64,000 bases of DNA from IMG/VR virus record IMGVR_UViG_3300030041_000010, one strand, 5' to 3'. The notes under the pieces were generated by a model. The model did not search any database. It was not told where the DNA came from and worked only from the letters and a program-made list of their open reading frames with translations. Shown here in pieces: positions 5,013 through 19,736 of the stretch (positions within the stretch are counted from its first letter, which is position 1; the number at the start of each line of letters is the position of its first letter). Both the position numbers and the translations under genes were made by a program. This DNA comes from a virus.

Positions 5013-5696
5013 TTATCGCGTCCTCGGGGGCCAGTGAACTCTTTTATTTTTCCATTCGGCTAACTCAGGAAACTGTTTGTCGGCATCAGTGTCATGCATC
5101 AAATTAGCCGGATTTGGAGGTGTCTCGTGATGGTCTCCGGGTTGAGCCGTGTCATCAATGTTCTTCTGATTCTCACGATTGGCAAGCTCTCCTGAACCCT
5201 CAAAAACCTCTCCGCTGATGTCATACCCATAGGCCGTTTTTCCTGTTAAACTGGAAAACCTGTTCTTAGAAGGACTACTCGCTGCACGTGTCAGGCTTTC
5301 TAAAACCCCATGAACCTTTGCCAAAGAATAGGACTGGAACAAAACGGCGGAGGAGAAATTTTCCGAGTTAGCGTACATTACAGAGATTTCGAAGTCATGA
5401 CGTGCATTTTGCATATACCGCTTAACCATCGGCATCCAAGAAACTTGAGGGATAACATCCAACAGACTCAACACAAGTTCGCGGAGTTTAGGCTCTGTTT
5501 GTTTGAACAGAATAGAATCATGTTCTGGTGCCTTTAAACCCTCCCAAATCATGACGATGTCATTGTAAGTATCCCGAAGCCAATTAACATCCTGCGGCCA
5601 TGTCTGTCCATCCTGAAGCAATTCATTACGAAACCTTGGCTTACTCTCCAGCGGGTGGACAGGCGAGGCGGCTAGTTTGGCAGGTTTCAATCTCAT
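5013..5696 (-). CDS. hypothetical protein
   Basis: ORF track; ATG at 5696 preferred as start. Confidence 0.7.
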   Translation of the reverse strand: MRLKPAKLAASPVHPLESKPRFRNELLQDGQTWPQDVNWLRDTYNDIVMIWEGLKAPEHDSILFKQTEPKLRELVLSLLDVIPQVSWMPMVKRYMQNARHDFEISVMYANSENFSSAVLFQSYSLAKVHGVLESLTRAASSPSKNRFSSLTGKTAYGYDISGEVFEGSGELANRENQKNIDDTAQPGDHHETPPNPANLMHDTDADKQFPELAEWKNKRVHWPPRTR

Positions 5697-5854
5697 CGTA
5701 GGTTCCCTACAAGAGGAAATGAAAAGCCAAAATTTCACAGCTACCGGGTTTATAGTAGAGGCTGCTTGCTGATGAAGGTGTTTATCGAGTAGTTAATGTA
5801 GTAATTTTGTGCCCTTACTCGTGTGAGGGTGACCTTCCACAGGATGGAAGGCAG

Positions 5855-5888
5855 AGAGGCTGGGAAGCTCTGTTCCCAGCCTCTTTTT
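5855..5888 (+). terminator. intrinsic terminator-like hairpin, possibly bidirectional
   Basis: AGAGGCTGGGAA-gctctg-TTCCCAGCCTCT followed by TTTT on the + strand. Confidence 0.7.
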
Positions 5889-6624
5889 ATATTTCAAATT
5901 CCGCGACCGCATACCTCGTCCACTTACGTTCCTTAGGGTACCCATGAGGGTTACACACTACTCGGGTTTCACCCAGCATGTAATCGCAAGTCAAGTGCGT
6001 ATGACCATGCACCCACAGACGAGGCTTCTTATCCAAAATAAGCGGTGTCTCATCGGAAACAAAGAACCGATTGATGGGACTCTCGGCGTACATCCTGTTG
6101 GTACTCAAGTTTGAGGGAAGGTGATGAGACAACACAACTGTATCCGGGCGAATCAGTTTATTGCCGTTCTCACGAAACTCTGTGTTTTTCTGATACACCC
6201 AATCGTGAATATCCTCAATATACTTGAAGTCGTTCAATTGGTGCTCGTATATCTGGTTCAGCGGGTCGAATGGAAACCACATGGCTCCGCCGTAGAAATG
6301 AACACCATCAATCGTAGCTTCACTATTCTCCAACACAATGTAGTTATCCGGCAGAAGGTCGCGGATGAATTTCTCAACATCGGCACCCACCTTTGAACTG
6401 TAATATTCGTGGTTGCCAAAAGTGTAGAGCACCCATTTAGCTTTCTCGCCCAAGAAATCGAACACACGGCGGCACTCATTCCGCGTCTGATGAGCGGGGA
6501 CTACGATGTCTCCGGGGAGGAAGAGGACATCCAAATCTGGAACGAAGGGGATGCGACCCAAGGCATCGAAAGGATTACCATAGTAGAACTCGGTGTGGCA
6601 ATCCGAAATTAACTGGGCTTTCAC
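5887..6624 (-). CDS. calcineurin-like metallophosphoesterase
   Basis: Motifs SDCH, PGD, GNHE, HH and GHTH; GTG start overlaps the upstream stop (GTGA). Confidence 0.9.
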   Translation of the reverse strand: MKAQLISDCHTEFYYGNPFDALGRIPFVPDLDVLFLPGDIVVPAHQTRNECRRVFDFLGEKAKWVLYTFGNHEYYSSKVGADVEKFIRDLLPDNYIVLENSEATIDGVHFYGGAMWFPFDPLNQIYEHQLNDFKYIEDIHDWVYQKNTEFRENGNKLIRPDTVVLSHHLPSNLSTNRMYAESPINRFFVSDETPLILDKKPRLWVHGHTHLTCDYMLGETRVVCNPHGYPKERKWTRYAVAEFEI

Positions 6625-7055
6625 TGTATACACTCCCGTTCCATATACTCGCCGTAGCACTCACCGCCCGGTTGATAGAGTGGAATCTCTGGCAGTAGCT
6701 TTGTGGGAGCCGACTTCACCTTCTTGACCGCTGCTTTCTTAGGGGATTTCGGCGGAGCCGCAGGAATTGGTGCAGCCCACAACTTCTCAAGAAGGGGTGT
6801 TGCCCGACGAATGAACTTCGCCCGGATACGCTTGCGGTGCTCTCTCCACTTCTTGAGACCGGCTTCGTTGTCTTTCCTGAGATAAGGTGCCCCGTACTTC
6901 GCCACATTCTTGTGGTGTTTTTCCAATATTTGTGAGGCTACTTGGTCGCCCAACTTCATGGCGAATCCTTTGGGAGTTGTATACTTCGTGCCATAATAGG
7001 TGACGGTCGTAAGTTTTTCGATTTTGATGTTCGACCACTCGTTGAAGAAGGCCAT
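6621..7055 (-). CDS. hypothetical basic protein
   Basis: ORF track; coupled to both neighbours. Confidence 0.7.
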   Translation of the reverse strand: MAFFNEWSNIKIEKLTTVTYYGTKYTTPKGFAMKLGDQVASQILEKHHKNVAKYGAPYLRKDNEAGLKKWREHRKRIRAKFIRRATPLLEKLWAAPIPAAPPKSPKKAAVKKVKSAPTKLLPEIPLYQPGGECYGEYMERECIQ

Positions 7056-7471
7056 TAGCTCACCACCAGCTTACGGGACGGTATCACCATAGGAAGGGCA
7101 CCTTCAAATAGCCGCAACGCCTCCTTGGTGCCTTCAGGGCTCCGGGGGATGAAGTGCTCGTACGTACCCCAACCGTTGGGAGCATTGAACGCTTCGAACC
7201 GGGGACGGTCACCCTTCATCAAGGCAAGTCCGGTGGTGAGCGGCTCGATTAGTTCCTTAGCCTTGGTGATGCCAAGCCGCTCTGGACGCCATAGGTGCTG
7301 GTAGATGCCAGCTTCCATCGCCATCTTGTTCAAGTTGTGGGTGATGTTCTGGTCGAAGACTACATCGGTTTCGGCGGACTTGCCGGTGCCGTCGCAATCG
7401 GGGCAGTTCTTGCAACGTTCGCAGGGAACCTCACGAGGCTCACCCTGTACTAGCCCCACATCTAGGCTCAT
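7055..7471 (-). CDS. phage hypothetical protein with DnaJ-like CxxC/CxxCxGxG zinc finger
   Basis: MSLDV...CERC..CPDCDGTG...NITHNL...NGWG; ATG at 7471 after AGAAGG. Confidence 0.7.
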   Translation of the reverse strand: MSLDVGLVQGEPREVPCERCKNCPDCDGTGKSAETDVVFDQNITHNLNKMAMEAGIYQHLWRPERLGITKAKELIEPLTTGLALMKGDRPRFEAFNAPNGWGTYEHFIPRSPEGTKEALRLFEGALPMVIPSRKLVVS

Positions 7472-7618
7472 GTCGTACCTTCTTTCTTCAATACTCGTAA
7501 TCCGCCGCCACATAACAACTCTTCTGATTGTTACCCCCGTCCACGCGGTTCACTCTTGAAAGGATAGCTGCCTTTAGGCCAACCTCCCCAATCAGGTACT
7601 CTTCTAATACTCAGAATT

Positions 7619-7694
7619 TGGTGTCGCCGATGGGAATCGAACCCACCATCATCTGATTGAAAGTCAGAGGTCCAGACCGATAGACGGCGGCGAC
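7619..7694 (-). tRNA. tRNA-Glu(TTC)
   Basis: Cloverleaf, loop CT-TTC-AA, GTTCGA T-loop, encoded CCA. Confidence 0.85.
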
Positions 7695-7748
7695 AAACTT
7701 AAATCCGGGTGCCTTACGTTGACTCCTCGATACACGAAACTCATAACT

Positions 7749-7863
7749 TGGTGCCGGGGTAGGTATCGAAGCCTACAAACTCACAAAACCCGTTCGCATA
7801 AACGGGCATACTTTGTGATGCCTATGGATGCCTCCAGCGAATCTACCAATTCTTCCACCCGGC
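7749..7863 (-). ncRNA. tRNA-like RNA with no canonical anticodon loop and a very long extra arm
   Basis: GCCGGG/CCCGGC-ACCA acceptor, Leu-like D-loop (GAATTGGTAGA), T-arm GTAGG-CTTCGATA-CCTAC; anticodon arm reduced to TGGA-GGCA-TCCA. Confidence 0.6.
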
Positions 7864-7869
7864 GTAGCT

Positions 7870-7945
7870 TGGTGCCCTCGGTAGGAATCGAACCTACGAC
7901 TTCTTCCGTGTGAAGGAAGCACTCGTACCGCTGAGTTACGAGGGC
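7870..7945 (-). tRNA. tRNA-Val(CAC)
   Basis: Cloverleaf, CTTCC-TTCACAC-GGAAG, CCA. Confidence 0.9.
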
Positions 7946-7956
7946 GAAACTTATTC

Positions 7957-8027
7957 TCAAGGAGGGGCATCGAACCCCCATCTCCGCCACGAACGGGCGG
8001 TGTCCTTACCGCTTGTCACTCCGACAT
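7957..8027 (-). pseudogene. degenerate tRNA, Glu-like (TTC)
   Basis: Anticodon stem CCGCC/GGCGG and T-arm GGGG-GTTCGATG-CCCC present; acceptor stem broken, no CCA; ends approximate. Confidence 0.45.
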
Positions 8028-8142
8028 CAGAGGCTATTACTAGCTTGGTGCTGACGGAACCCAGTTACATGCTGCTCAGTATATCGACAGCGGAGCAACA
8101 TTTACCCGTCATTGCTCTGCCATGTTAGACGACCTTGAAACT

Positions 8143-8217
8143 TGGTAGCCCTAGAGGGAGTCGAACCCTCATTCTCACCTTGAAAGGGTGCCTTCCTAGC
8201 CGTTAGAAGATAGGGCC
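8143..8217 (-). tRNA. tRNA-Glu(TTC)
   Basis: Cloverleaf, CACC-CTTTCAA-GGTG, CCA. Confidence 0.88.
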
Positions 8218-8222
8218 ATAAA

Positions 8223-8513
8223 CTACCACCGATTACTTGGACGCGGAGACGAGGATTTAACTCGTGTCTCAACCTTTGCAGGGTCGCGCCTGATTCGCCT
8301 CGGCCACTCCGCATTAAAAACTCTTGCTTCTGCTGGCACACAGGCCGCACAAAGGTGCTTTGCCTCGTGCTTGAAACTCTGTCCCGACCCCGTCTCGAAA
8401 ACTACAGTGAAGCCAATATCATCGAAGTGTGGGCACTCTGGTATACCTTCCAACTTGCAGAACTCCGATAGTTCATAAGCCATCACCATCGTGATCCTCA
8501 GGGTGGTAAGCAT
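8223..8513 (-). CDS. hypothetical Cys/His-containing protein; 3' end reads through tRNA-Cys
   Basis: ORF track; the C-terminal ~30 codons overlap the tRNA. Confidence 0.45.
   Translation of the reverse strand: MLTTLRITMVMAYELSEFCKLEGIPECPHFDDIGFTVVFETGSGQSFKHEAKHLCAACVPAEARVFNAEWPRRIRRDPAKVETRVKSSSPRPSNRW
8238..8313 (-). tRNA. tRNA-Cys(GCA), atypical T-loop
   Basis: Loop CT-GCA-AA, U73 discriminator, CCA; T-loop TTAAATC. Confidence 0.65.
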
Positions 8514-8650
8514 CCCACACTTTCAATACCGCAATCAAAACAAAAATACCAATCAAAACGAAAAAAGTTCCAACATCAACGTGCCCGGTGAAACCATACT
8601 CGGGAGTCCATGGTGCTTGCATAGTAGACCTCTACTATGCTTCTCATATT

Positions 8651-8725
8651 TGGTAGCCCTACGGGGTGTCGAACCCCGGTTGTCAGGTTGAGAACCTGCT
8701 TTCCTAACCGCTAGAAGATAGGGCC
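8651..8725 (-). tRNA. tRNA-Glu(CTC)
   Basis: Cloverleaf, CAGG-TTCTCAA-CCTG, CCA. Confidence 0.88.
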
Positions 8726-8736
8726 AAACTACAAAC

Positions 8737-8823
8737 TAGTGACGAGTGAAGGATTCGAACCTTCGTTCCCGCCCTTCGCATAAAGCTACTAAGCGAGTTT
8801 TTAGGCCACTAAAGTAACCCGTC
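8737..8823 (-). ncRNA. tRNA-like RNA with a 20-nt anticodon loop
   Basis: 7-bp acceptor GACGGGT/ACTCGTC, D-arm, stem CTCGC/GCGGG around a 20-nt loop, perfect T-arm GAAGG-TTCGAAT-CCTTC; ends ACTA. Confidence 0.6.
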
Positions 8824-8827
8824 AAAC

Positions 8828-8876
8828 TGGAGCCGAGGGGGCGTGGTTATCCGCCACGGGATTTCCCTTACTCGGC
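8828..8876 (-). ncRNA. 49-nt CCA-ended mini tRNA-like element
   Basis: GCCGAG/CTCGGC-TCCA closing two small hairpins (GGG-AAAT-CCC; GTGG-CGGATAA-CCAC). Confidence 0.4.
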
Positions 8877-9108
8877 ATAAACTCGATTAACTGCGTCCGT
8901 CTTCACTTTACTAGCCACCCGCCAAGGTCATGGTTGGGGAAGCAACTTTCGCTAGAGCTATCTTGGTGACCCCTACTCTTCCTTTCGGTACCATGGGTAT
9001 GGGTCAGAGCCCATAAATCACCGCAGCCTTCACAGCGTGACAAAGCGACTTGCCACTTACGCACTAAGATACACCGTGTTCTGTAATCACACTATGCACT
9101 GTGAAACT

Positions 9109-9131
9109 TGGTGGATGTGACAGGAGTCGAG
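9109..9131 (-). pseudogene. isolated tRNA 3' fragment
   Basis: CTCGACTCCTGTCACATCCACCA (T-loop remnant, acceptor 3' strand, CCA) directly after the stop of 9132..9344. Confidence 0.5.
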
Positions 9132-9344
9132 CTACACACCCAAAACCTCTTCTACCGCTTCATCAACGGTGGCGATGGCAATCACTTTGCCAGTTTCTGT
9201 CGTTCTCGGCCACCGTAGTTTACCTATGCATTCATCACCCTTATACACGCAGATACTGTACTTCCCGCTTCTCTCACCATCGTTCTCACATAGTGATAAA
9301 GTCGGGTCTTTCGAAATTGCAATTACTGCGTCAATAAAAGTCAT
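9132..9344 (-). CDS. hypothetical protein
   Basis: ORF track; ATGA overlap with the upstream ORF. Confidence 0.6.
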   Translation of the reverse strand: MTFIDAVIAISKDPTLSLCENDGERSGKYSICVYKGDECIGKLRWPRTTETGKVIAIATVDEAVEEVLGV

Positions 9345-9523
9345 TCACCCTCATCCACCAACTCAACCAAGAGTTGTATAGCTTCAATCTCGCGGTCTCC
9401 AACCTGTGAGACCTTACCTGTTACTGTGTCCGTGACCTTGAGCGGCCATTGCTTTGCCTTGATGTCGGCGATGCTGACAGTCGGACAGCTTACTAACGTG
9501 AACTCAGGTACACTATACTTCAT
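9341..9523 (-). CDS. hypothetical protein
   Basis: ORF track. Confidence 0.6.
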   Translation of the reverse strand: MKYSVPEFTLVSCPTVSIADIKAKQWPLKVTDTVTGKVSQVGDREIEAIQLLVELVDEGE

Positions 9524-9689
9524 TCAATCCACACTTCTCACAAAGGTCAGGGTCGTCTTCATCGCTGAGTGGTGCCTTACAACTCAAGCACCGCTTGTAT
9601 GTGTCGGGCTCTTCCAACCCCGCGTACCACGGACTGCAAATACATTCACCCACACAAACATCGTTTTCGCAAACCGCGTTGAACTTCAT
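9513..9689 (-). CDS. small Cys-rich putative zinc-binding protein (58 aa)
   Basis: Manual translation MKFNAVCENDVCVGECICSPWYAGLEEPDTYKRCLSCKAPLSDEDDPDLCEKCGLNEV; AGGAAGAG ribosome-binding site. Confidence 0.6.
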   Translation of the reverse strand: MKFNAVCENDVCVGECICSPWYAGLEEPDTYKRCLSCKAPLSDEDDPDLCEKCGLNEV

Positions 9690-9706
9690 CTCTTCCTAAC
9701 TATTCA

Positions 9707-9810
9707 TGCAACAGGTGGGATTCGAACCCACGGCGTCCATAACAATCCGCCAGCGATATAGGCCCTTAACCATGAGACGTGGAATGCTCTACCAACTGAG
9801 CTACCATTGC
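9707..9810 (-). ncRNA. tRNA-like RNA with a ~40-nt anticodon loop
   Basis: Canonical D-arm TAGCTCAGTTGGTAGAGC and T-arm GTGGG-TTCGAAT-CCCAC, acceptor GCAATGG/CTGTTGC; TCCA/TGGA encloses 40 nt; no encoded CCA. Confidence 0.65.
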
Positions 9811-9910
9811 ACAAACTTGGTGGACGCAGGGGACTTGGCACCCCATCGCTCGGCGTTACCACTATGGACGCCCACATTTCAATTCCTTAAGCCGAGTTCC
9901 GGACTTAACT

Positions 9911-9989
9911 TGGTGGAGCTATGGGGACTCGAACCCCACTGGATTCCTCATTGCGAATGAGGTGAACACCCCCGGCATTCCCTAGCCCC
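9911..9989 (-). tRNA. tRNA-Ala(CGC)
   Basis: G3:U70, CCTCA-TTCGCAA-TGAGG, CCA. Confidence 0.85.
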
Positions 9990-10071
9990 AAACTTTCGGG
10001 AGGAGAGGTTCTACGCATCTCACACGTTGAGAGCAAATCCCCTCTATCTCCCTGCATCTGTCAGACTGTCG

Positions 10072-10141
10072 TGTAGACACGGAGAGATTCGAACTCTCAT
10101 TTCCCCTCGATAGGGGCGTCCTACCATTAGACGACGAGCCT
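10072..10141 (-). pseudogene. tRNA-like gene (Asp/Glu-type body) with a shortened anticodon loop
   Basis: GTCGTCTAATGGTAGGAC D-arm, CCCC-TATCGA-GGGG (6-nt loop), T-arm GAGAG-TTCGAAT-CTCTC; abuts the endonuclease stop codon. Confidence 0.55.
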
Positions 10142-10749
10142 CAGCCCGACAAACCCTTAACCCAAACACTTACCGAACTCTTTGCAACCCCGAGTAAAGC
10201 TGCGATTTGGGCTTTACAAATTCCTTGTTCAAACAACTCCTGCGCTTTCATTCGTTCAACCGCTTTTATATTTCTCAACCTTGCGGCGGCGGAGCCTATC
10301 GCTGATAATCCTCTTTGCTTTGCCATCTCCGATGACCCACGAGCGCCACTACGATTGAAATTGTTGCGAATCATATCCCGATAGTTAGCGTCTGTCTTCC
10401 AACGCTCCGCGCTGTTAGTCCTATTGGCCGCTCGAACCCTCCACCCTTGGTTGGGTTGCTGATTTATCCAGTCGAAGCCACCACTCCCACCTTGTCTCAG
10501 GTTGTAGCACAAAGGGTCGGCTCGATACGTTTCAATCAGTTCGTATTCTTTAGCAAATGCCTCCCCTGAGTTGTCGAAGATGAAGCACACGTTCTTTATG
10601 AACGACTGCTCACCGTGCTTACGAATCGCCGCCTTCAGAACCTTACCTGACCCAAGGTACCCGTCGTACGGGTTCTTGGTTTTGTGGACGCCGAAGTAAT
10701 ACTTTCCGTTCACCAAATTCTGTGTTCGATACACTGTGTAAAATATCAT
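10141..10749 (-). CDS. GIY-YIG (Seg-like) homing endonuclease with C-terminal HTH
   Basis: TVYRTQNLVNGKYYFGVH...YLGSG...E...YNLRQGG; C-terminal KAQIAALLGVAKSSVSVW helix-turn-helix. Confidence 0.88.
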   Translation of the reverse strand: MIFYTVYRTQNLVNGKYYFGVHKTKNPYDGYLGSGKVLKAAIRKHGEQSFIKNVCFIFDNSGEAFAKEYELIETYRADPLCYNLRQGGSGGFDWINQQPNQGWRVRAANRTNSAERWKTDANYRDMIRNNFNRSGARGSSEMAKQRGLSAIGSAAARLRNIKAVERMKAQELFEQGICKAQIAALLGVAKSSVSVWVKGLSG

Positions 10750-10815
10750 GAACCTATCAGCCTCTCAGGTTTCTGAGGACTTAACCTCTACTAAAGAGGT
10801 TGATAGTCACGAATG

Positions 10816-10888
10816 TGCGCCTTGTAGGAATCGAACCTACGGTCCCTTCCATGTCAAGGAAGTGCTCTAGCCGCTGAGCCAAAGGCGC
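10816..10888 (-). tRNA. tRNA-Val(GAC)
   Basis: Cloverleaf, CTTCC-TTGACAT-GGAAG; CCA not encoded. Confidence 0.88.
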
Positions 10889-10962
10889 AAAACTAGTTAG
10901 CGGCTGCAAGCGCGTCCGTCCTGCATTTAATCCCTAAACCTGAGGGAACCACACTTTAAAGT

Positions 10963-11039
10963 TGGCGGGGACGACGGGGCTCGAACCCGCGACCTCTACC
11001 GTGACAGGGTAGCGTTCTAACCAACTGAACTACATCCCC
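10963..11039 (-). tRNA. tRNA-Asp(GTC)
   Basis: Canonical cloverleaf, G73, CCA. Confidence 0.95.
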
Positions 11040-11049
11040 AACTTCAAAC

Positions 11050-11124
11050 TGGCGGAGACGGCGAGGGTTGAACTCGTATATTCTTCCGTGACAGGGAAGC
11101 CCATTGCCATTATGGTACGTCTCC
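11050..11124 (-). tRNA. tRNA-Asp(GTC)
   Basis: CTTCC-CTGTCAC-GGAAG, G73, CCA. Confidence 0.82.
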
Positions 11125-11218
11125 TCAAGGGTGTGTTCCGCAGCTTTTAGTTCTCACTGCAAGCCCTAAGCCCGTGCGCCTTTGTGCGGTACGACGTTAG
11201 GTGCTACCCTTTGAAACT

Positions 11219-11294
11219 TGGCGGGGCTGATGGGACTCTAACCCACGATAGACGGCTCGACAAGCCGCTGCATTAGACGCTATGCTACAACCCC
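11219..11294 (-). tRNA. tRNA-Asp(GTC), atypical T-loop
   Basis: CGGC-TTGTCGA-GCCG, G73, CCA; T-loop TTAGAGT. Confidence 0.75.
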
Positions 11295-11295
11295 T

Positions 11296-11386
11296 TGGTG
11301 GACGTGTCGTGCCGCTTACGCTGTCATTTAACGACCGGGTACCTCATCTCTCTAATTACGAGTGTGCTGTTCAACTGCACACACCC
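11296..11386 (-). ncRNA. CCA-ended tRNA-like RNA with an Ala-type acceptor stem
   Basis: GGGTGTG/CACGTCC-ACCA with G3:U70; other arms non-canonical (enlarged T-position loop). Confidence 0.45.
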
Positions 11387-11488
11387 ATACGATTTGAGCT
11401 ACCACAACAGTGTCGTTCAGTAGAGCCATTTGGCTGGATTGTTCATACCCGAAGGGAACTCTCCGGCATCACATCCTCTACTAAAATT

Positions 11489-11563
11489 TGGTGGACCTAG
11501 AGGGGATTGAACCCTCGACTTCTTCCATGCCATGGAAGCACTCTCCCACTGAGTTACAGGCCC
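11489..11563 (-). tRNA. tRNA-Ala(GGC)
   Basis: G3:U70, CTTCC-ATGGCAT-GGAAG, CCA. Confidence 0.9.
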
Positions 11564-11571
11564 CTAAAACA

Positions 11572-11781
11572 TCAAAACCTTTTGCCACTGTTCAGCATAT
11601 TTATCCTTTCTAATACCGAGGGCTCCGTCAACAGCAGACGTAAATTCTCATTCGGCTGTGTTGGCCTTTCCAACATTGCAACAAACTCTTGCCACTGCTC
11701 AGGACTGAGGCGAATGTTGTTCTCTTCACCAGCCAGTCGGGTATGAACGCTTCTCATGTCGGCATCGAAGTTAATCTTCAT
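11572..11781 (-). CDS. orphan DUF1778 (TacA/AtaR-like) antitoxin C-terminal fragment, 69 aa
   Basis: IRLSPEQWQEFVAMLERPTQPNENLRLLL matches the DUF1778 C-terminal pattern I-x-L-S-x(3)-W/F-x(2)-F-x(3)-L-D/E-x-P-x(2)-PN-x(2)-L; AAAGGAGAG ribosome-binding site; no RHH N-terminus. Confidence 0.7.
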   Translation of the reverse strand: MKINFDADMRSVHTRLAGEENNIRLSPEQWQEFVAMLERPTQPNENLRLLLTEPSVLERINMLNSGKRF

Positions 11782-11797
11782 CGCTCTCCTTTCAAAT

Positions 11798-11873
11798 TGG
11801 AGGCGATGATGGGATTCGAACCCATGCATAACGGTTTTGCAGACCGCCGCGTTAACCACTTCGCCACATCGCC
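11798..11873 (-). tRNA. tRNA-Cys(GCA)
   Basis: Cloverleaf, CT-GCA-AA, U73, CCA. Confidence 0.92.
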
Positions 11874-11891
11874 TATAACACCAACAAAACT

Positions 11892-11965
11892 TGGAGCGGA
11901 TAGTCAGATTTGAACTGACGGTGACAGGGTGGAAGCCTGTTGCCTTACCGCTTGGCTATACCCGC
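11892..11965 (-). tRNA. tRNA-Gly(TCC)
   Basis: ACAGG-CTTCCAC-CCTGT, U73, CCA. Confidence 0.88.
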
Positions 11966-12191
11966 TTTGAATCAGAGATATTTTCGTACCTCCAGTGGTC
12001 CGAATCGGTAGCTCTCATATGAGCTACATCCCCACATAAGAGAACTGTTCAATCGGAAGGTCTTTCCAAAAGACCAACTCCGCCACCAGAAATAGTACCT
12101 CCACATATCTCCTCAATTTCTCGACGCCTCTCCGCCGTGCCACACCACTTTAGTCCGCAGGACTCGGTAGGTGTCACCCCGCTTAAAACTC

Positions 12192-12587
12192 TGCACTAGA
12201 CTTATAGCCGGAGTTCTGTCCAGAGGGTTACCCCTCCTGTACAATCATTCGTCTCGGCCAGCCGTTACCGTCTGGCTCTAGCCCCCAACCCGCCGATTCA
12301 TAACGGTACGAGCAGTACCTGTCGGCCTATTTGAGGTTGCACCGCGTAGAGATTGCCCGTTTCACCCGAATTTAATCGGCTCGTCTCTGTTGCTCTAATC
12401 GTCACACTCAACATCGGACGGGTTGTTCCCATAGGGTTGGTGGAAATCAACCAGACGTATAGCTGCGTCCCCTTACGCTACGTCCCCGAACAAGTGTGCT
12501 AGGGTGTTACCCTATACGCTGCTCTGTGGTGCTCCGAACTTCCTCGAAGTGGTATTGCGCCACGTCGCGATTGTCCAGTCTAGTGCA
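12192..12587 (-). ncRNA. rnpB: RNase P RNA, bacterial type A-like
   Basis: P1 TGCACTAGACT/AGTCTAGTGCA; CR-I GAGGAAGTTCGGAG; CR-II GCAACAGAGA; CR-III GGGTGAAACGG; P15 GGTAAC loop; CR-IV AGACGAATG; CR-V ACAGAACTCCGGCTATA. Confidence 0.92.
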
Positions 12588-12614
12588 TACTTAATGAAAC
12601 CGAGGCCGAAGCTG

Positions 12615-12959
12615 TTACTGTACTGCCGACGTGCGCTGTACTGCCACGCTACGAAGGTAAGCACGCATCTCGTCCGAGAACTCATTGAACATCTCACCCT
12701 TATCCAACCAGTGCAAAATGGTCTCCCAGTTCTCTTCCTCAGGCGTCCACTGACCCTCCAAGCCGTAGCAAGAGCAGTGACCGCCACTTACTGAGAACAG
12801 CTTCCCGTCCTTCTCGAACAGAACGAATGCCGAACCCGAATAGTCCTCGTAGCTATACACCGCTGCGTAGACCAACGCATCCTTCAATTCATCCTGACCA
12901 ATATTGAACTGGTCGCATACATCCTCAACGCTGCCGAACCTATCTACAAATACTTCCAT
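12615..12959 (-). CDS. phage hypothetical protein
   Basis: ATG at 12959 after AAGGAG; YSYEDYSGSA...GGHCSCYGLEGQW motif. Confidence 0.75.
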   Translation of the reverse strand: MEVFVDRFGSVEDVCDQFNIGQDELKDALVYAAVYSYEDYSGSAFVLFEKDGKLFSVSGGHCSCYGLEGQWTPEEENWETILHWLDKGEMFNEFSDEMRAYLRSVAVQRTSAVQ

Positions 12960-13028
12960 CGTTTTCTCCTTGTGGTACAAACCATCGAGAGAAACGGTGA
13001 GGTAATTGTTCGACCTCGGTTTCAAATT

Positions 13029-13107
13029 TGGTGGACCGTCAGAGATTTGAACTCTGCTGATATTCTGTGTGCAAGACAGATAAACACTCCTAGCATTTCC
13101 ACGGCCC
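13029..13107 (-). tRNA. tRNA-Ala(TGC)
   Basis: G3:U70, TCTGT-CTTGCAC-ACAGA, CCA. Confidence 0.85.
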
Positions 13108-13156
13108 AATATTGTCAAACATCATGTAATCACCGGCTGGCCGGGATTAAAAATCT

Positions 13157-13243
13157 TGGTGGCTTTGGCTCACGCCGGGGCACCACCCGCGCCCCTCGAA
13201 GTAAACTTACCCAGTCTTGTGGACTGGAGTCTTGCTCCAGAGC
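13157..13243 (-). ncRNA. CCA-ended cloverleaf-like RNA lacking tRNA loop consensus
   Basis: Imperfect terminal stem GCTCTGG/CCAAAGC followed by CACCA; hairpins GGAG/CTCC, CAGTC/GACTG and GGGGCGC/GTGCCCC. Confidence 0.4.
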
Positions 13244-13244
13244 T

Positions 13245-13319
13245 TGGAGCGGCTGGTGGGATTCGAACCCACGACCTCTTCCTTGGCAAGGAAGCGTTCT
13301 ACCACTGAACTACAGCCGC
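13245..13319 (-). tRNA. tRNA-Gly(GCC)
   Basis: Canonical cloverleaf, U73, CCA. Confidence 0.95.
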
Positions 13320-13349
13320 ATATACTTCAATACTGCAAAAACCAAAACT

Positions 13350-13425
13350 TGGTGCTCCAAGTGGGACTCGAACCCACGATAGTCTGCTTGTAGGGCAGAT
13401 GATTTAGCCGCTAATCTACCGGAGC
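13350..13425 (-). tRNA. tRNA-Val(TAC), C at position 33
   Basis: TCTGC-CCTACAA-GCAGA, A73, CCA; first gene after the attenuator. Confidence 0.8.
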
Positions 13426-13437
13426 AATCTTTACTGC

Positions 13438-13470
13438 AAAAACGAAAGGCCAGCCTTTTCGGCTGGCCTC
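13438..13470 (-). terminator. intrinsic terminator of the leader (attenuator)
   Basis: GAGGCCAGCC-GAAAA-GGCTGGCCTT followed by TCGTTTTT, 12 nt before the first tRNA. Confidence 0.88.
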
Positions 13471-13518
13471 GGTTTCGATTTCAGACTGGTTAGTTAGTCT
13501 TAATCTCTCCCGAGGCCA
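13464..13518 (-). promoter_or_regulatory. antiterminator hairpin, mutually exclusive with the terminator
   Basis: TGGCCTCGG (13518-13510, inside the leader ORF) pairs with CCGAGGCCA (13472-13464, the terminator 5' arm); inner helices GATT/AATC and AGACT/AGTCT. Confidence 0.8.
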
Positions 13519-13633
13519 TGGTATCCTCTCCCGCGCAACCGGCTTCAGCGGCTGCGACAGCTACGACTACGCCCACGACGCCAGTGTTCGGTGCGTCCAT
13601 GGTGTTAATCGAAATGTTGGTACGGATAGTCAT
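13490..13633 (-). CDS. attenuator leader peptide (47 aa) of the tRNA operon
   Basis: AGAAGGA ribosome-binding site; MTIRTNISINTMDAPNTGVVGVVVAVAAAEAGCAGEDTMASGEIKTN; codons 18-37 are 19 GNN plus TGC. Confidence 0.8.
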   Translation of the reverse strand: MTIRTNISINTMDAPNTGVVGVVVAVAAAEAGCAGEDTMASGEIKTN

Positions 13634-13653
13634 GGTGTTTGTCCTTCTGTTAC

Positions 13654-13683
13654 ATAATACGCAGAAAGTTGAAATTTGTGCAA
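13654..13683 (-). promoter_or_regulatory. sigma70-like promoter of the leader/tRNA operon
   Basis: TTGCAC-N18-TATTAT with an A-rich UP-like tract upstream. Confidence 0.72.
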
Positions 13684-13724
13684 GCTGTTTTTCATTTATT
13701 TTCACAGCTTATGTTTCAACCCAC

Positions 13725-14030
13725 GCACCTGTACAAGGTGAAATTCCTCGGTGTGCTGCCTGTGTTGCACCACCCAAACTCGGCTTGACGTTAGTCTGGA
13801 ACCGGACCATCGAACCCGGTATCTCCGAGGAACCCATAAACTGAGAGTACCACCACCCCGTTGTGGAAATCAACCCCCATGTGCCTTACGATAACCATCG
13901 GCTATCGAATTCAACAATGAAATGGATTGGCCTTTTGTCTCCACTTTCACTTTCCGGGTTCGAGGTTCCCGCCTGCAAACGATACTTCACCCTCGAATAC
14001 CCCGCCAGTTGCTTCCCAAGAAGTATCACC
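13725..14030 (-). ncRNA. candidate structured non-coding RNA (strand and ends uncertain)
   Basis: Many perfect complementary blocks, including crossing 10-bp and 8-bp helices; no convincing ORF. Confidence 0.45.
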
Positions 14031-14201
14031 TCATTCATAATACACAATTCAGAGGTGCTAACACAACCAAATTTGAAAACTCCCGAGGGAGGGACGGTTC
14101 AGTCAGGTTTATCTGTGCCGTCCAATCCTTCCCGAAACCCTTGCGGGTTTGCGTACCTGACGAATTAAATCCATAGTACACCAACGAGGAAGAAACCGCA
14201 A

Positions 14202-14525
14202 CTACCTGCCATTTTTGATGACGTTTATCCATCCCTGTGTTTGCTCACTTACAGTAGGTGTGGGTTTTACCGTCTTGCGGGTTCGAGGCTTGGAAGTCTC
14301 GAACCGCTCGGTCTCCGCAGCGTACCGCACTAGAGCTTGCCGCAGATTCATAGCAGCCTCGTAACCCTCCAGTGCAGACTCACAGCCTTGGCACCGCCCT
14401 ATAATGGCACCACGGCCATGTGCAGGGTTGTAGCGTGGGTGCTTGGGACACCGCAGTGTCAGTTTGCTCTTGGATACAGTCTTCAGCCGCAGCTTGGTGG
14501 CGTCGTCAAAGCAGAACTTCAACAT
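14202..14525 (-). CDS. hypothetical protein (CPKH...CQGC putative zinc site)
   Basis: ORF track; CAGGAG ribosome-binding site. Confidence 0.65.
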   Translation of the reverse strand: MLKFCFDDATKLRLKTVSKSKLTLRCPKHPRYNPAHGRGAIIGRCQGCESALEGYEAAMNLRQALVRYAAETERFETSKPRTRKTVKPTPTVSEQTQGWINVIKNGR

Positions 14526-14526
14526 G

Positions 14527-15156
14527 TCATCTCTCCTGTTGTTTGCAGTCGCAGTCTTCTTCGCAGGGTTCCATACTCAGTTGATACGCATCAATGGACT
14601 CCCGCACATCTTGTGTTCCCCAACAAATGTAGCTATGGGCTCCATTACCCAAGTGATGCCCCTCTTTGGCGAATAGCTCATACTCACCAGCACCAAGGTC
14701 CACCAGCGTGAACCCATACTTCATCGCCAGTTCAATAATCGTCAACTCGACCGGCGGACGCTTTGTGGTCGTCTTGGGTGTTGTCGGCTCCAGTGGAAAG
14801 TCAGCACCCCAAGCGAAAATCTGCTTGTACTTGCCGGGGTAGCGGCGATAGCGGGGGTGGTTCCGCATCTTGTCGTGGTCTACCCCACGAGTGTGGGCTA
14901 ATTCGTGAGCAATGACAAAAGCAAAGTCCACCTTATCCGGGTTGTGTTTGCTTACCCGAACACACATGGAGTTTGACCGAAGCGTGGCGTACCCTGAGCT
15001 ACTACCAGTACTATTGCGGGTGTATACTACCCGCACATGAAGAGCCGGGGCTCCCCGTTTACACAAGTCAGGCCGCTCATCCTTTGCCACATGTGCGATG
15101 AAGGCTTTGATATGGTCTGACCGCCAATGCGTTTTGTTGTTCAGTTCGATTCGCAT
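14527..15156 (-). CDS. putative zincin/SprT-like metallopeptidase
   Basis: VIAHELAH...H (HExxH) motif. Confidence 0.65.
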   Translation of the reverse strand: MRIELNNKTHWRSDHIKAFIAHVAKDERPDLCKRGAPALHVRVVYTRNSTGSSSGYATLRSNSMCVRVSKHNPDKVDFAFVIAHELAHTRGVDHDKMRNHPRYRRYPGKYKQIFAWGADFPLEPTTPKTTTKRPPVELTIIELAMKYGFTLVDLGAGEYELFAKEGHHLGNGAHSYICWGTQDVRESIDAYQLSMEPCEEDCDCKQQER

Positions 15157-15316
15157 GTCTTTATTATACACCCACAGGTGCCTTAAACCTCTGATTATAC
15201 ACGTTTTAAGGTAATGTTTATCGAACTCACCAACGTAAACCCTTTATTTTCAACAAAAAATTTTATCAAATTTTCCTCTTGACACGCTATTTTCCATTTT
15301 CGGTTATTATGACTGT

Positions 15317-15706
15317 ATGAACACTAAATCGTCCCGCGAAGAGCGGTTTGCAGCTTGGACAGAGGAAATGATGAAGGCCGAGGCAACTGTCACGGCTGTG
15401 GTCAAAACGGTTGTAGACAAATACGACCCAGAACAGCTTTTGAAGATCGGTTGTCCTTCGGACGAGTATGATTCGGTATGTTCCATCATCGCGGGTGCGA
15501 TTGTGCGGGAGGGGATGCATCAAATAACAAAGCAGGAGTTGGGAAACCTTATTGCCTTTGCATGGCAATATGAGTTCGGTCCATGGACAACACCTGTTCG
15601 TTATTACTCCGTGTTTTACACGATAGCCGAGGAGATTCACCCGTTGATTCCAGAGTATGACCTAAGAATCAACTCTCAGGTTCAGACTCTTCCATCTCCA
15701 GAATAA
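15317..15706 (+). CDS. hypothetical protein
   Basis: ORF track; divergent from an AT-rich promoter region containing TTGACA at 15279. Confidence 0.7.
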   Translation: MNTKSSREERFAAWTEEMMKAEATVTAVVKTVVDKYDPEQLLKIGCPSDEYDSVCSIIAGAIVREGMHQITKQELGNLIAFAWQYEFGPWTTPVRYYSVFYTIAEEIHPLIPEYDLRINSQVQTLPSPE

Positions 15707-15911
15707 TCTCAGTTTCATCCAAGCGGAGTCTTAGATAATCCTCATTGCATTGTTTTGCAAGGACACCAACACCCTCCACCATACCAAATTCGTGTGCTGA
15801 GATAAGAACTTCTCCACCAAATCGGTGAACAAAAACTGCGAGAAGTTGAAGTAATACCTCTTCTCGCAGTTCCTGTGGATTGACAATCTCAAAGCCGGGG
15901 TCACTCATCAC
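15669..15911 (-). CDS. hypothetical protein
   Basis: ORF track; GAGG ribosome-binding site. Confidence 0.65.
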   Translation of the reverse strand: MMSDPGFEIVNPQELREEVLLQLLAVFVHRFGGEVLISAHEFGMVEGVGVLAKQCNEDYLRLRLDETEIILEMEESEPES

Positions 15912-15943
15912 GTAAACCTCTTGATGCTAAAGGGTCAGAAAGT

Positions 15944-16225
15944 TCAAGCGATGATTTTCTTAAGGCTACCTGCCGCCTGAGCTACACGGGCTGTCTCGCT
16001 TGGTGAAGCAACGATAAGGGGAGATATTTCAACCTCAACAAGAGCAATCTGATTACGTGGAAGAAGGGTGAATTTACCCCCCTCCTTCTTCAACATACCC
16101 ACTTGAGAATATTGACCCATCATCTGATTGATGGCTGCTTCAGCCGCGTCAGCAGGACATTTAATGTCCTGCTCAACCACGGAGCCATCAAGTTTGGTTA
16201 TAACGAAGTGTAGATTAGTTTCCAT
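15944..16225 (-). CDS. hypothetical protein
   Basis: ORF track; GAGGA ribosome-binding site. Confidence 0.7.
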   Translation of the reverse strand: METNLHFVITKLDGSVVEQDIKCPADAAEAAINQMMGQYSQVGMLKKEGGKFTLLPRNQIALVEVEISPLIVASPSETARVAQAAGSLKKIIA

Positions 16226-16256
16226 TCAATCCTCACTGGTTAATACTGGTTTTTAG

Positions 16257-18506
16257 TTAAACCAGTTCGCAAAACCCACCGGCACAGGCCAACGTCTCCT
16301 GAAGCTTGGTGTTGTCTTCCTCTTCGATGAGTTCCTTGTAGTCCACATCGACATACTCACGTTGAAGGTCACACCAATACTTCCAGTTGTGAACCTCCTT
16401 CAGGCAGTAGGTCATCTGCTTCCTGTCTCCCTCGAAATAGCGGTCAGCAAACTGACGAGCCCGACGAACCCAATCAGCTTTAGCCAAGCATTCCAGATAA
16501 GCCCTGCGGTCTTCGATAGTTTCGAAGTCAACATTCTCATCTGAAGTGGTAGCGATAGAATCACAATCCAAGGTGTTGACACCAGTAACGTAGTCACAAG
16601 CCAACCACAAGTTATCGTCAAACCGGGCAAGACCATCCACGATTAACCCTGATGCCATCAAAGAGCCGTCACCATACATCTTCACAATCTCAGCCGGGGT
16701 GTGAATAGCCACAAACGGAGCTTGTGGATAGTCAAGGTCTCCTGTGTTAGATAACAATGAAATACCAGCGAAATCCTCGCGGTGTCCATAGATGTATGCT
16801 TCCACCTCATCCCACTCGTTCGGCTTCACGTTGATCGTATTCGAAACGTTATGCCTCAAAAATGATTGAGCGCAGAGTTCATGATTACGCCCTGCGGCGA
16901 CCCAGTTGTTTTGCGTCAAACTGACAAGCTCCAGTAACTTAAGCGCGGTTACATCCTTCTTCGTTCTTGCCCCCTCAGGGACTTCAATACAAAAGGAAAT
17001 AATCTCGTCGGTACCATTTTTACTCCAGACACTTTTCTCAACCGCACGTGGGTTCCTCTGTTGAAAGAACTGAAGTGGGGCTTCAAGCATGTTGGCCTGT
17101 ACACGACGGATATAACGCTTCGAGTGGTGAGCGTGAATACCTGAAGAAGTCCCAAGGATGCAGGACGTGGTCCCGGCTGGCTTAACACATGTGCAACGGG
17201 CGGCTTGACGAATACCAATTTTGGCGGCTATCTCCTTGTTGACTGCGACCACAAGTGCTGCCATCTCCCGTTGAATCTCTGGATCAAACAAAACCTCAGG
17301 ACTGTCCATCATCCCTGTGATGGAAACACCTAGAAGAGCCTCACGACGCACAATATTCTCGGTGGTCACCCCAAGATATGAGAAGTCTGTGTAACCGGCC
17401 TGTGCAGTACCTATAATGGCAGCAGCACGAGCAGCAATAGCAAAGTCTTCCTTCGTCTTGCACTTCTTACCGTTAATCTCGCAAAGGTTGCAAAATGCCC
17501 ACCCCGACAGGCCAGTGGTAAGGTCAACTGGAAACATCCCAATCTCACCACACGGGTTGTACATTATCTCGGTGGAGTCCGACCAGACAAATCCCGGTTC
17601 ACCAAACTGACGTACCGACTCCATCAAATCATGAAAACTCTCCGGATTAGTAACACCTCGAACGAGCACGACTGAGTTGTTCGACCGACCACGCTGGGGG
17701 TTGGTGTAGTACCAATCTCCTGTTTTGGCCTTAATCATCAAATCATCGTTGGGTGAAAACAAACAGATGGTGGCAGAGCGACGAACCCCGCCGCTGAGCA
17801 CAGCATCACTGGCGTGCATCATGATGTCATAAGCATCAATCGAACGAAGACGAGTCTGACCACTTGCTACACAGCGGTCAAGCAGTTCCCGAATAGCTTC
17901 AAGAGATTTCATCAACGGTTCGGAGCCGGGAGCCTTACCTACACCTGAGGATAGTTTCGAACCCTTTGAACGAATAAGGTCGAAGTTGAATTTCACTTCA
18001 AACCCCGCCCAGTCAGGAGAATCAGGATGAGGATGGTATGTGGCTAAGAGCACACCCAGAGCATCAGCCCAACCCTCAATGGAGTCAGGAATAACAAACT
18101 CACGAATAGGACGATTTACAAGGTTGGAATGGAAGTCAGGAAGTTTAGCGATATGGTGTTGCTGAACAGAGAAACCCACACCGGCTCCACAGAGAAGCAA
18201 CCAAAAACCTTCTTGAAAAAACCGAAGCCGGTCACAATAAGAAACGGTGCAGTTATACACACGGGCGTGTTTACTGAGGGCTGGTGCTCCGGCGTATTGA
18301 AGTGCTCGTTGACTCCCAAGTACACGCTTTGCCTTGGATTGTTCAAAAGCCCAAGTTAGTTCATCAGTGATTTGGGGGTAGCGGGATAGGTGCATTTCTA
18401 GCACCCGGTCGATGGCTTCATTCCATGTATCTCTACGCTTCAAGTCAGAGTTGTAACGAGCGTATTTGGAATGAAAAGTGTAAGACTGAAGAGCCTTGAT
18501 AGACAT
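16257..18506 (-). CDS. nrdJ: class II (adenosylcobalamin-dependent) ribonucleotide reductase
   Basis: YNC, GGVRRSA, NPCGEI thiyl-radical motif, CNLCEIN, VKPAGT, C-terminal CAGGFC redox pair; no beta-subunit gene nearby. Confidence 0.9.
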   Translation of the reverse strand: MSIKALQSYTFHSKYARYNSDLKRRDTWNEAIDRVLEMHLSRYPQITDELTWAFEQSKAKRVLGSQRALQYAGAPALSKHARVYNCTVSYCDRLRFFQEGFWLLLCGAGVGFSVQQHHIAKLPDFHSNLVNRPIREFVIPDSIEGWADALGVLLATYHPHPDSPDWAGFEVKFNFDLIRSKGSKLSSGVGKAPGSEPLMKSLEAIRELLDRCVASGQTRLRSIDAYDIMMHASDAVLSGGVRRSATICLFSPNDDLMIKAKTGDWYYTNPQRGRSNNSVVLVRGVTNPESFHDLMESVRQFGEPGFVWSDSTEIMYNPCGEIGMFPVDLTTGLSGWAFCNLCEINGKKCKTKEDFAIAARAAAIIGTAQAGYTDFSYLGVTTENIVRREALLGVSITGMMDSPEVLFDPEIQREMAALVVAVNKEIAAKIGIRQAARCTCVKPAGTTSCILGTSSGIHAHHSKRYIRRVQANMLEAPLQFFQQRNPRAVEKSVWSKNGTDEIISFCIEVPEGARTKKDVTALKLLELVSLTQNNWVAAGRNHELCAQSFLRHNVSNTINVKPNEWDEVEAYIYGHREDFAGISLLSNTGDLDYPQAPFVAIHTPAEIVKMYGDGSLMASGLIVDGLARFDDNLWLACDYVTGVNTLDCDSIATTSDENVDFETIEDRRAYLECLAKADWVRRARQFADRYFEGDRKQMTYCLKEVHNWKYWCDLQREYVDVDYKELIEEEDNTKLQETLACAGGFCELV

Positions 18507-18726
18507 AGGTATGCGATGATTTCCTTAAAGGTTGAATGTCGGATTGTTTACCGCGACGTGGTGCGTAATTAGGGTTTGGAATTGAAGGACTCCACTTACT
18601 GGCGATTTCCTCTCATTATCCGATTTCGCAGTAAGACTGGAGTTTTGTACTCTATGCTTCACGGCTTAAATGGCTACTTTTCTCAATACCACTGATGTTT
18701 CTATTTTGTATAGAAAATCGAGGGTC

Positions 18727-19734
18727 TTACTCGATAGCTTTACAGTTGATACCCACACAGTTGTCCACAATTCGACGCCACACTGGCTCCCCCGTATTGT
18801 TGATAGCTTGGTTGTCGGTTTTGCACAGCCACGCTTGAAAACTTTCCTTGCTGCGGTGGTTGGTAGTTATTACAATTTGACCCTCAGTTTCATCAATTGC
18901 ACAAATCAACTCAAACAGCTTGTTGGCTTTGAACTCTGTCAACCGGGATTTATCAATTTCCTCAATGACAACGCAAGAAGTTCGACCGAGTTGCTTGTTT
19001 TTCCGAATACGGTTGGGTGAAAGAGTGGGGGCATCTGCATCATCAGGGTGGTTCTGATAATCCAGCAGTGATTGAATGTATGTATCCCAGTTGATGTAAT
19101 GAATCCAGAATGAATCAACATAAGTGTTGAACCCATACCTATCTTCGAGATGGTCATTCCAAGTGCGCTCCAATGCACTTCTAACCAAGGCGGTAGCGTA
19201 GGTAGTCTTTCCCGTGCCGGGAGCACCATAGAAAAAGTAACCCTTGTTCTGGTTGTCCCTCAAAAAGCGAATGATCCTCACTTGACGTTCTCTACTCATT
19301 TTGGAGTTGGAAGATGGCAGCAGTGATAACACGTTGGATTGCTGATACCGGCTAGGCAGAAGCCGTTTCAGGTAGTCTCTCTTCTCCTTCATCTTGACTT
19401 CGATAGGGCAGGGTTTATTTACAGTTTGGCGTCTTCCCGTGTCTTCTCCACCTTCAATCCATGTCTGAACCACAGGTATTTTACCCGTCCCTTTACAAAG
19501 GAAACACGGTTCTATGCCGAACATGATAGCATCGTAAGTTTTAGCAGAGATAGGATTATCAGGGTGATAAGGGCTCTCTACAGTGCGCCAGTAGGGGGCA
19601 GGAGGGTTGGGCTTGAAAGTACCCTGCTCCATCTCTTCGCGGATGCGTTCCAGTTCATCCTCGGCGTCTATCTTATCCTCTCGAAAAACATCTTCAAAAT
19701 CGAGACCCTCATGGGGCTTAACTTCTTCAGTCAT
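18727..19734 (-). CDS. DnaC/IstB-like AAA+ ATPase (helicase loader)
   Basis: N-terminal CxxCxGxG zinc region, Walker A GAPGTGKT, Walker B VVIEEID, ITTN sensor, WRRI. Confidence 0.82.
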   Translation of the reverse strand: MTEEVKPHEGLDFEDVFREDKIDAEDELERIREEMEQGTFKPNPPAPYWRTVESPYHPDNPISAKTYDAIMFGIEPCFLCKGTGKIPVVQTWIEGGEDTGRRQTVNKPCPIEVKMKEKRDYLKRLLPSRYQQSNVLSLLPSSNSKMSRERQVRIIRFLRDNQNKGYFFYGAPGTGKTTYATALVRSALERTWNDHLEDRYGFNTYVDSFWIHYINWDTYIQSLLDYQNHPDDADAPTLSPNRIRKNKQLGRTSCVVIEEIDKSRLTEFKANKLFELICAIDETEGQIVITTNHRSKESFQAWLCKTDNQAINNTGEPVWRRIVDNCVGINCKAIE

Positions 19735-19736
19735 GA

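Follow-up and report, generated by a model that had tools for sequence, protein, structure and literature searches.

RNase P RNA is usually treated as a cellular housekeeping ribozyme. Class A RNAs usually carry P13/P14, which are dispensable in some lineages, while class B RNAs have P5.1, P10.1 and P15.1 and no P6, P16 or P17. Control by leader-peptide attenuators is known from the ilvGMEDA, thr and trp operons. The only viral RNase P-like RNA that we found in print, that of camelpox and other orthopoxviruses, shows a partial structural likeness and is inactive according to the accessible part of the report (PMC3001073). No report of a phage RNase P RNA was found in the literature searched, which comprised open papers, with subscription journals and the automatic annotations of Rfam and IMG outside its scope. 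The accessible text of PMC11143913, PMC8172020, PMC3001073, PMC4919922, PMC1874661, PMC13282480, PMC7824862, PMC10690425, PMC8093824, PMC12636597 and PMC7162821 holds no mention of one, nor do the supplements of PMC7162821 or the available part of those of PMC10690425.

The DNA analysed here (the window) is a stretch of 64,000 nucleotides from IMG/VR virus record IMGVR_UViG_3300030041_000010. A first-pass annotation had named an RNase P RNA in its tRNA operon, with five conserved regions and an 11-bp P1, and had proposed a comparison with the Rfam model RNaseP_bact_a. When the whole window was scanned with cmscan, this model (RF00010) matched at 12586-12189 on the minus strand with 162.5 bits (gathering score 100) and an E-value of 1.5e-50, and the alignment covered the full model (positions 1-367). 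P1 consists of 11 uninterrupted Watson-Crick pairs (12587-12577 with 12192-12202), as proposed and with the same ends, and the five conserved regions were all located, in order, by the Rfam scan and a helix map (Table 1). The stretch 12587-12192 (minus) is a full-length class A RNase P RNA in a jumbo-phage tRNA operon. The hand-made map contains P2-P12, P15-P19, the P6 pseudoknot, in which L17 is paired with 12524-12521, and the L15 GGU; P18 (12275-12258) ends in a GUAA loop of the GNRA type. In this model the catalytic domain is complete, with P4 and its bulged U, P5, P6, the L15 GGU and P16-P19. Minimum-energy folding (z -3.2) recovered P1 and missed the pseudoknots; the map was built otherwise.

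Table 1. Features of the RNase P RNA gene and its operon; positions are those of the window.
Feature	Position	Strand	Basis or remark
RNase P RNA gene, class A, 396 nt from P1 end to P1 end	12192..12587	minus	RF00010 match and helix map
CR-I and P4 5' strand	12532..12545	minus	Rfam scan, helix map
CR-II	12391-12380	minus	Rfam scan, helix map
CR-III	12365-12357	minus	Rfam scan, helix map
CR-IV	12254-12246	minus	Rfam scan, helix map
CR-V and P4 3' strand (12213-12206)	12205..12219	minus	complementary to the changed 5' strand
P15, L15 GGU (12290-12288), P16, P17	12283..12336	minus	helix map, covariation
P18 with GUAA tetraloop, CR-IV, P2 3' strand, P19	12223..12275	minus	Rfam scan, helix map
Reduced specificity domain: P10, P11, CR-II, 4-pair P12, CR-III	12349..12400	minus	Rfam scan, helix map
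88-nt insert replacing the P9 loop	12407..12494	minus	predicted extended stem and three-hairpin junction
tRNA array, 17 ARAGORN genes	7619..13425	minus	three upstream, fourteen downstream of the RNase P gene
Leader ORF, 47 codons	13490..13633	minus	20 consecutive codons all GNN or TGC
Predicted attenuator	13446..13517	minus	terminator 13470-13446 with U tail; competing stem 13517-13510 with 13472-13465
Sigma-70-like promoter	13654..13682	minus	motif recurs before two other tRNA operons of virus record G001
114-aa acidic ORF, pI 4.2, phrog_8792-like	12615..12959	minus	between tRNA-Ala and the RNase P gene
15-pair inverted repeat (13023-13009 with 12610-12596)	12596..13023	minus	predicted to loop out the 114-aa ORF

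The window RNA shares with E. coli M1 RNA and T. maritima P RNA the full RF00010 model with CR-I to CR-V, helices P1-P12 and P15-P19, the P6 pseudoknot, the L15 GGU, the P18 GNRA loop and an eight-pair P4 with a bulged U. Unlike these RNAs, it is encoded by a phage within a tRNA operon, has four of its eight P4 pairs changed on both sides, lacks P13/P14 (43 RF00010 model positions are deleted), carries an 88-nt insert in P9 and comes with no detected rnpA. It is a class A RNA by the features tested, with a non-consensus P4 and no P13/P14. Loss of P13/P14 and of the L9 tetraloop may weaken the RNA when acting alone. Two other builds were rejected: the map leaves no room for the class B helices and contains P6, P16 and P17, and the presence of P7-P12 does not fit a minimal Pyrobaculum-type RNA, which consists of the catalytic domain only. 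Compared with the camelpox RNA, the window RNA has a full bacterial-type match, covariation and adjacent substrates.

P13/P14 are also missing from the RNAs of CPR bacteria, as described in the accessible part of PMC8172020, and from reduced RNAs that we call Burkholderiales-like (G082, G094 and G311) after the nearest named homologue of a neighbouring protein. P10-P12 of the window RNA match those of G082 at 89% over 82 nt, and this specificity-domain match was found in 13 of 301 genomes of one phylum, in Burkholderiales-like RNAs. A near-identical specificity-domain layout also occurs in an unrelated bacterium (L278). Like the window RNA, the Burkholderiales-like RNAs vary at P4 pair 67/359 (E. 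coli numbering), but they keep G68 and C71. Moreover, the reduced cellular RNAs are single chromosomal genes, and in the tree the window RNA branches apart from them. Eight cellular RNAs (L225, L227, L229-L232, L234 and L235) have G-C, C-G or a mismatch at 67/359 and no P13/P14.

The P9 insert is different or missing in the closest relatives. Its 13-nt hairpin motif (12452-12440) is repeated exactly at 13875-13863 (minus), upstream of the operon promoter, though a chance test at two mismatches gave no significance. A small structured element is common to the RNase P RNAs of relatives and resembles a mobile RNA module in that it sits in different helices: P9 in L212, L239 and L242, P3 in L213 and L151, and P12 in L214.

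Seven related RNAs were aligned by MAFFT with no structure model. Pairing was found in 97.1% of 524 cells, and 50 of 75 pairs were changed on both sides, counts that come from related sequences and hence are not probabilities. None of 500 shuffles reached the observed pairing, and slid alignments were 33-44% paired. P5, P6, P7, P15, P16 and P18 all covary; P6 was 100% paired in the seven RNAs, with covariation at three of its four pairs. This covariation, together with the paired free positions of P4 in the 58 cores described below, supports the earlier suggestion that the structure is under selection.

As the first-pass annotation had stated, P4 is altered on both strands and reads AGTTCGGAG / CTCCGGCT. 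It keeps the normal length of eight pairs in the register of the Rfam consensus, with a bulged U at 12537 (the equivalent of E. coli U69), so the change is not an insertion. Four of the eight pairs differ from the consensus, with both sides changed: A-U to G-C at 67/359, G-C to U-G at 68/358, C-G to G-C at 71/356 and G-C to A-U at 73/354 (E. coli numbering). The consensus pairs A67-U359, G68-C358 and C71-G356 are thus missing, and RF00010 still accepts the RNA. Among 42 cellular RNAs examined, 67/359 varies in eight, and U68-G358 and G71-C356 occur in none.

The change is real, but it is not peculiar to this gene. Patterns for the variant P4 returned 4, 68 and 53 stretches from IMG/VR (overlapping sets; many of the 68 are chance matches), and at least 50 of the 53 are RNase P-like, with a complementary CR-I upstream. 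The altered P4 is the signature of a family. The pooled variant set comprises 58 distinct cores, that of the window included, in which most P4 positions are fixed by the search patterns and only the free positions are informative. At 74/353 we found G-C in 24, A-U in 29 and no pair in 5 cores; at 73/354, G-C in 51, A-U in 4 and G-U in 3; and at 68/358, U-G in 50 and C-G in 8. The eight C-G forms indicate that the second U is the bulge, in its normal place. A shifted bulge was rejected, because the C68 forms pair in the normal register only. Two RNAs found without a P4 pattern (L237 and L275) have A-U at 71/356, and two others (L239 and L242) have the 71/356 flip alone, an intermediate state.

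In the accessible part of PMC12710915, the metal ligands are the phosphates at 67 and 68 and O4 of U69. As the contacts at 67/68 are made via phosphates, base changes there need not abolish catalysis. We read the P4 change as inherited and probably tolerated, with base pairs rewritten around a bulged U that is retained, and not as a loss of function. The UU of the phage P4 resembles the UU step beside the scissile phosphate in yeast nuclear RNase P (A91, U92 and U93), where U92 is equated with U69 in the same partly accessible source (PMC12710915). This likeness was drawn without an alignment, and the rest of the window RNA is bacterial. U93 is presumably the yeast bulge, at odds with U92 being the counterpart of U69.

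Since two P4 pairs next to the catalytic centre have no counterpart in any of the 42 cellular RNAs, the window RNA could also be a decoy, namely a ribozyme of little or no activity that would sequester host RnpA or host pre-tRNAs, for which the camelpox RNA, inactive in the accessible part of PMC3001073, is a viral precedent. We consider this very unlikely: the bulged U, the L15 GGU, P6, CR-II and CR-III are kept and covarying, and the tRNAs of the phage need RNase P themselves, so blocking the enzyme would be self-defeating. We favour an active RNase P subunit, and a family of phage RNAs in which P4 has been rewritten naturally and with covariation offers a direct test of which P4 bases catalysis needs.

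To see how far the variant P4 extends into cellular DNA, we looked at 185,579 species genomes, in which the CR-IV/CR-V pattern also used on IMG/VR gave 30 matches. Six of these are RNase P-like (L080, L086, L087, L096, L097 and L099); the remaining 24 have no complementary CR-I, and the ten of them that were inspected resemble coding DNA. tRNAs lie within 3 kb of five of the six variant RNAs. Each of the five bacterial assemblies with a variant RNA holds a separate RNase P RNA of higher score (210-301 bits), and the sixth match comes from an archaeal bin, where the copy groups with a viral one. All six are apparently phage contigs. The context of the pattern fits 37 of the 42 cellular RNAs tested, so that a common cellular variant form would probably have shown. 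The variant P4 thus seems to be nearly confined to phage-like DNA, and an additional rnpB of the variant type can mark a contig in a genome bin as phage.

RNase P RNA had been called uncommon in viruses. This stands for deposited phages: four blastn queries revealed no array-borne RNase P RNA in 50,697 records. The window RNA matched a single 27-nt stretch in a protein gene, two variant RNase P queries matched nothing, and a cellular RNase P query matched 13 records, of which one was opened, without a convincing case. It needs qualifying for IMG/VR contigs, which hold dozens. In the opened record (L284; MW495066.1, 111-119 kb), the neighbours of the RNase P-like stretch are fabI, engB, mtgA and glyS. 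The record was submitted as a Microcystis jumbo phage, and its DNA here resembles that of a bacterial chromosome. A plasmid search gave no match.

Of the 53 variant RNAs, 44 have a tRNA within 3 kb and 35 have four or more, while nine have none. They occur with full, reduced and absent specificity domains. In 18 of the 53 the core from CR-I to CR-V measures at most 215 nt, and family function may therefore have drifted. Very small members (L132, L137, L115, L144, L153, L097 and others, about 155-215 nt from CR-I to CR-V) score below the Rfam threshold and are missing most of their specificity domain. On the same contig as L155, an RNase P-like RNA with a 186-nt core (L004:3780-4015, minus) is seemingly circularly permuted: it begins right after a tRNA at the P3 3' strand, its P2 partner lies downstream of CR-V, and its flanks form a 15-pair helix, the sole such case among 53 rows checked. 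At L114, L138 and L126/L033 the 3' halves either lack a CR-I in the nearest 400 nt or have a span of 570 nt, which suggests genes interrupted by inserts.

Canonical P4 helices occur in phage tRNA arrays as well, and 13 such RNAs entered the tree; the variant is thus not required for phage life. Eight viral loci found by the specificity-domain motif include three variant, two intermediate and three canonical P4 helices. On a tree built without the P4 columns the variant label needs nine changes, yet a single variant clade was not rejected (p-AU 0.47; 25 against 52 rows, with nine long rows left out). Phylogeny had been proposed as a guide to the host lineage, which it did not provide: the window RNA falls among phage RNAs, without strong support, and stays apart from the sampled cellular RNAs, a sample that did not include the RNase P RNAs of Acidobacteriota.

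These distributions also bear on the possibility that the phage RNA replaces a host RNase P RNA destroyed during infection, either by a defence nuclease or by the phage, with the P4 change as an escape signature. The near confinement of the variant to phage-like DNA (RNase P-like RNAs make up at least 50 of the 53 viral matches but six of the 30 in species genomes), the separate higher-scoring copy in all five bacterial assemblies and the presence of the variant with every state of the specificity domain are in line with this, and P4, as the most conserved sequence of the RNA, would be a natural target. However, other phage arrays keep the canonical helix, the eight specificity-domain loci are mixed, and a founder effect suffices as long as a single origin is not rejected. 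We know of no nuclease aimed at P4, and consider replacement unlikely. An extended version, in which jumbo phages have their own RNase P lineage with an active-site helix rewritten to survive or replace an attack on host RNase P, here wired into a ribosome-stall loop that co-induces tRNAs and their maturase, is similarly speculative and doubtful. The existence of a phage RNase P family hints that the maturation of tRNAs may become limiting or contested in the course of an infection.

We also considered that the gene is host chromosome DNA or part of an assembly chimera. Host rnpB does occur in virus databases, where many canonical matches have no tRNA array and MW495066 provides an example, and the window has no capsid or terminase gene. 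Its genes are nevertheless of phage type: besides tRNAs they encode homing endonucleases, helicases, a ribonucleotide reductase and a lytic tail-like protein, and the 42 window ORFs scanned include none with a housekeeping role in cells. G001, an IMG/VR virus record of 75 kb, is 100% identical to the window over 15 kb (5000-20000), and several distinct virus records carry the same operon. Homologues of a window protein occur in four of five relatives; two of these are complete records (332 and 456 kb) that contain terminase-like ORFs (phrog_2). Terminase_6N gave no match in five records, and phrog_2 hit only the PhoH gene in G001. As the RNA does not group with sampled cellular RNAs either, a host origin is extremely improbable. 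In one relative (L215; G004:C27, near 69.4 kb) an efflux-pump gene runs into a tRNA half followed by a phage-type array, which is either an assembly chimera or an integration junction.

The first-pass annotation saw no rnpA in the window and proposed that the RNA borrows host RnpA. PF00825 was indeed not found among the 42 larger ORFs scanned, nor in any of 49 virus records, 13 of which are at least 90% complete; these include G001, which is 24% complete, and 10 of 14 control genomes scored in the same search. As no rnpA was detected in the virus records, host RnpA is the likely partner. RnpA proteins are interchangeable between species according to the accessible part of PMC4919922, and CR-IV and CR-V are kept in the window RNA. 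A divergent phage protein subunit could evade PF00825. Two candidates for such a subunit were rejected. The 114-aa ORF is acidic and lies beside the RNA elsewhere in L242 only, where it is enclosed by a stem of other sequence; the basic 107-aa ORF at 14525-14202 belongs to no named family, was found in one of five relatives searched and has look-alikes that are mostly from Acidobacteriota.

The RNase P gene lies within a tRNA array behind a leader similar to those of amino-acid operons, with a short leader ORF and a competing antiterminator and terminator. In contrast to those operons, the predicted attenuator of the window would control tRNAs together with the RNA that matures them. The 17 tRNAs of the array serve Val, Gly, Ala, Cys, Asp or Glu without exception, five related arrays are restricted in the same way, and the leader run encodes the same residues (Gly, Val, Ala, Glu, Cys and Asp). 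In the predicted folds the stems are mutually exclusive, as the terminator 5' arm can pair instead with the end of the leader. With a ribosome placed early, the antiterminator displaces the terminator in the predictions for the window, G002 and G005, whereas in G003 the two coexist; the antiterminator arms covary among four folded loci. Eight distinct loci (the window and seven others) have such a leader at 0.9-1.8 kb upstream of the RNase P gene, in a survey that was given 18 loci and returned no output row for six. Three other loci show no leader: L215 and L275, with little or foreign upstream DNA, and L147, with a different array. The nine variant RNAs without a tRNA within 3 kb and the absence of a GNN leader operon at L147 indicate that coupling to an attenuator is not general.

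In the window, the phage promoter motif is present in a single copy, before the leader, and the RNase P gene follows on the same strand about 860 nt downstream of the terminator. Just two terminator-like sites lie between the attenuator and the 3' end of the gene: a weak site where tRNA-Val ends and another within the P9 insert. Co-induction of the RNase P RNA with the tRNAs by the attenuator, as proposed earlier, is likely from this arrangement. CCA is encoded in 15 of the 19 tRNA-like elements of the array, which fits the L15 GGU.

From the sequence data together, we think it fairly probable that the RNA is an active RNase P subunit which binds host RnpA, matures phage pre-tRNAs and derives from the attenuated transcript that also yields its substrates. 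Ribosomes would stall on the Val, Gly, Ala, Cys, Asp or Glu codons of the leader and allow the antiterminator to form, and read-through would yield one long precursor with the tRNAs and the RNase P RNA. The latter would be cut out, fold, bind host RnpA and remove the 5' leaders of the phage pre-tRNAs. tRNA-maturing capacity would then rise just when those tRNAs run short, a feedback loop, and the position behind a codon-sensing leader would close the control loop for tRNA supply. A stable RNase P RNA would also serve the other tRNA operons of the phage.

P4 binds metals and does not choose substrates. This argues against an active but retuned enzyme, in which P4 and the reduced specificity domain would suit atypical phage tRNAs, tRNA-like RNAs or further transcripts on which the host enzyme performs poorly. 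The array does contain odd tRNA-like elements without an encoded CCA (10141-10071, 9810-9704 and 8823-8739, minus), and RNase P cuts several non-tRNA and phage RNAs according to the accessible parts of PMC11143913 and PMC4919922. Nevertheless, the reduced specificity domain also occurs in ordinary cellular enzymes and most array tRNAs look standard, which makes retuning quite unlikely compared with ordinary maturation of the phage tRNAs. One of the odd elements has a short anticodon loop and lies directly behind the homing endonuclease ORF 10749-10141.

Further tRNA operons with the same promoter motif were found in G001, for Leu/Tyr and Pro (L216:8711-10930 and 2982-3740, minus). They have short leaders rich in the matching residues, with a clear terminator in Leu/Tyr, and no RNase P gene was seen in either. 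In the window, the inverted-repeat arm beside the RNase P 5' end (12610-12596) is complementary to both 13023-13009 and the 5' arm of the attenuator terminator (13476-13465). Directly after the RNase P gene lies a structured non-coding stretch (12182-11966, minus), the first 60 nt of which are conserved in G002.

Among metatranscriptomes, 13 RNA runs have sequence words in common with the region. All four peat RNA runs examined, which had been chosen by this very region, contain a contig over the RNase P gene that matches exactly or with one mismatch. The covering contigs measure 626, 338, 298 and 201 nt, with depths of 322, 86, 29 and 5.6, respectively, while the other listed exact contigs of the same phage have depths of 2-10; these contigs are strandless and without transcript ends, DNA is possibly included, and depth cannot rank genes. 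They give a suggestive hint of a stable RNA, short of proof. In three RNA runs (X1, X2 and X4) a 75-nt match to the specificity domain (12325-12400) continues into different flanks, and probably stems from a similarly built cellular RNase P RNA of another organism in peat.
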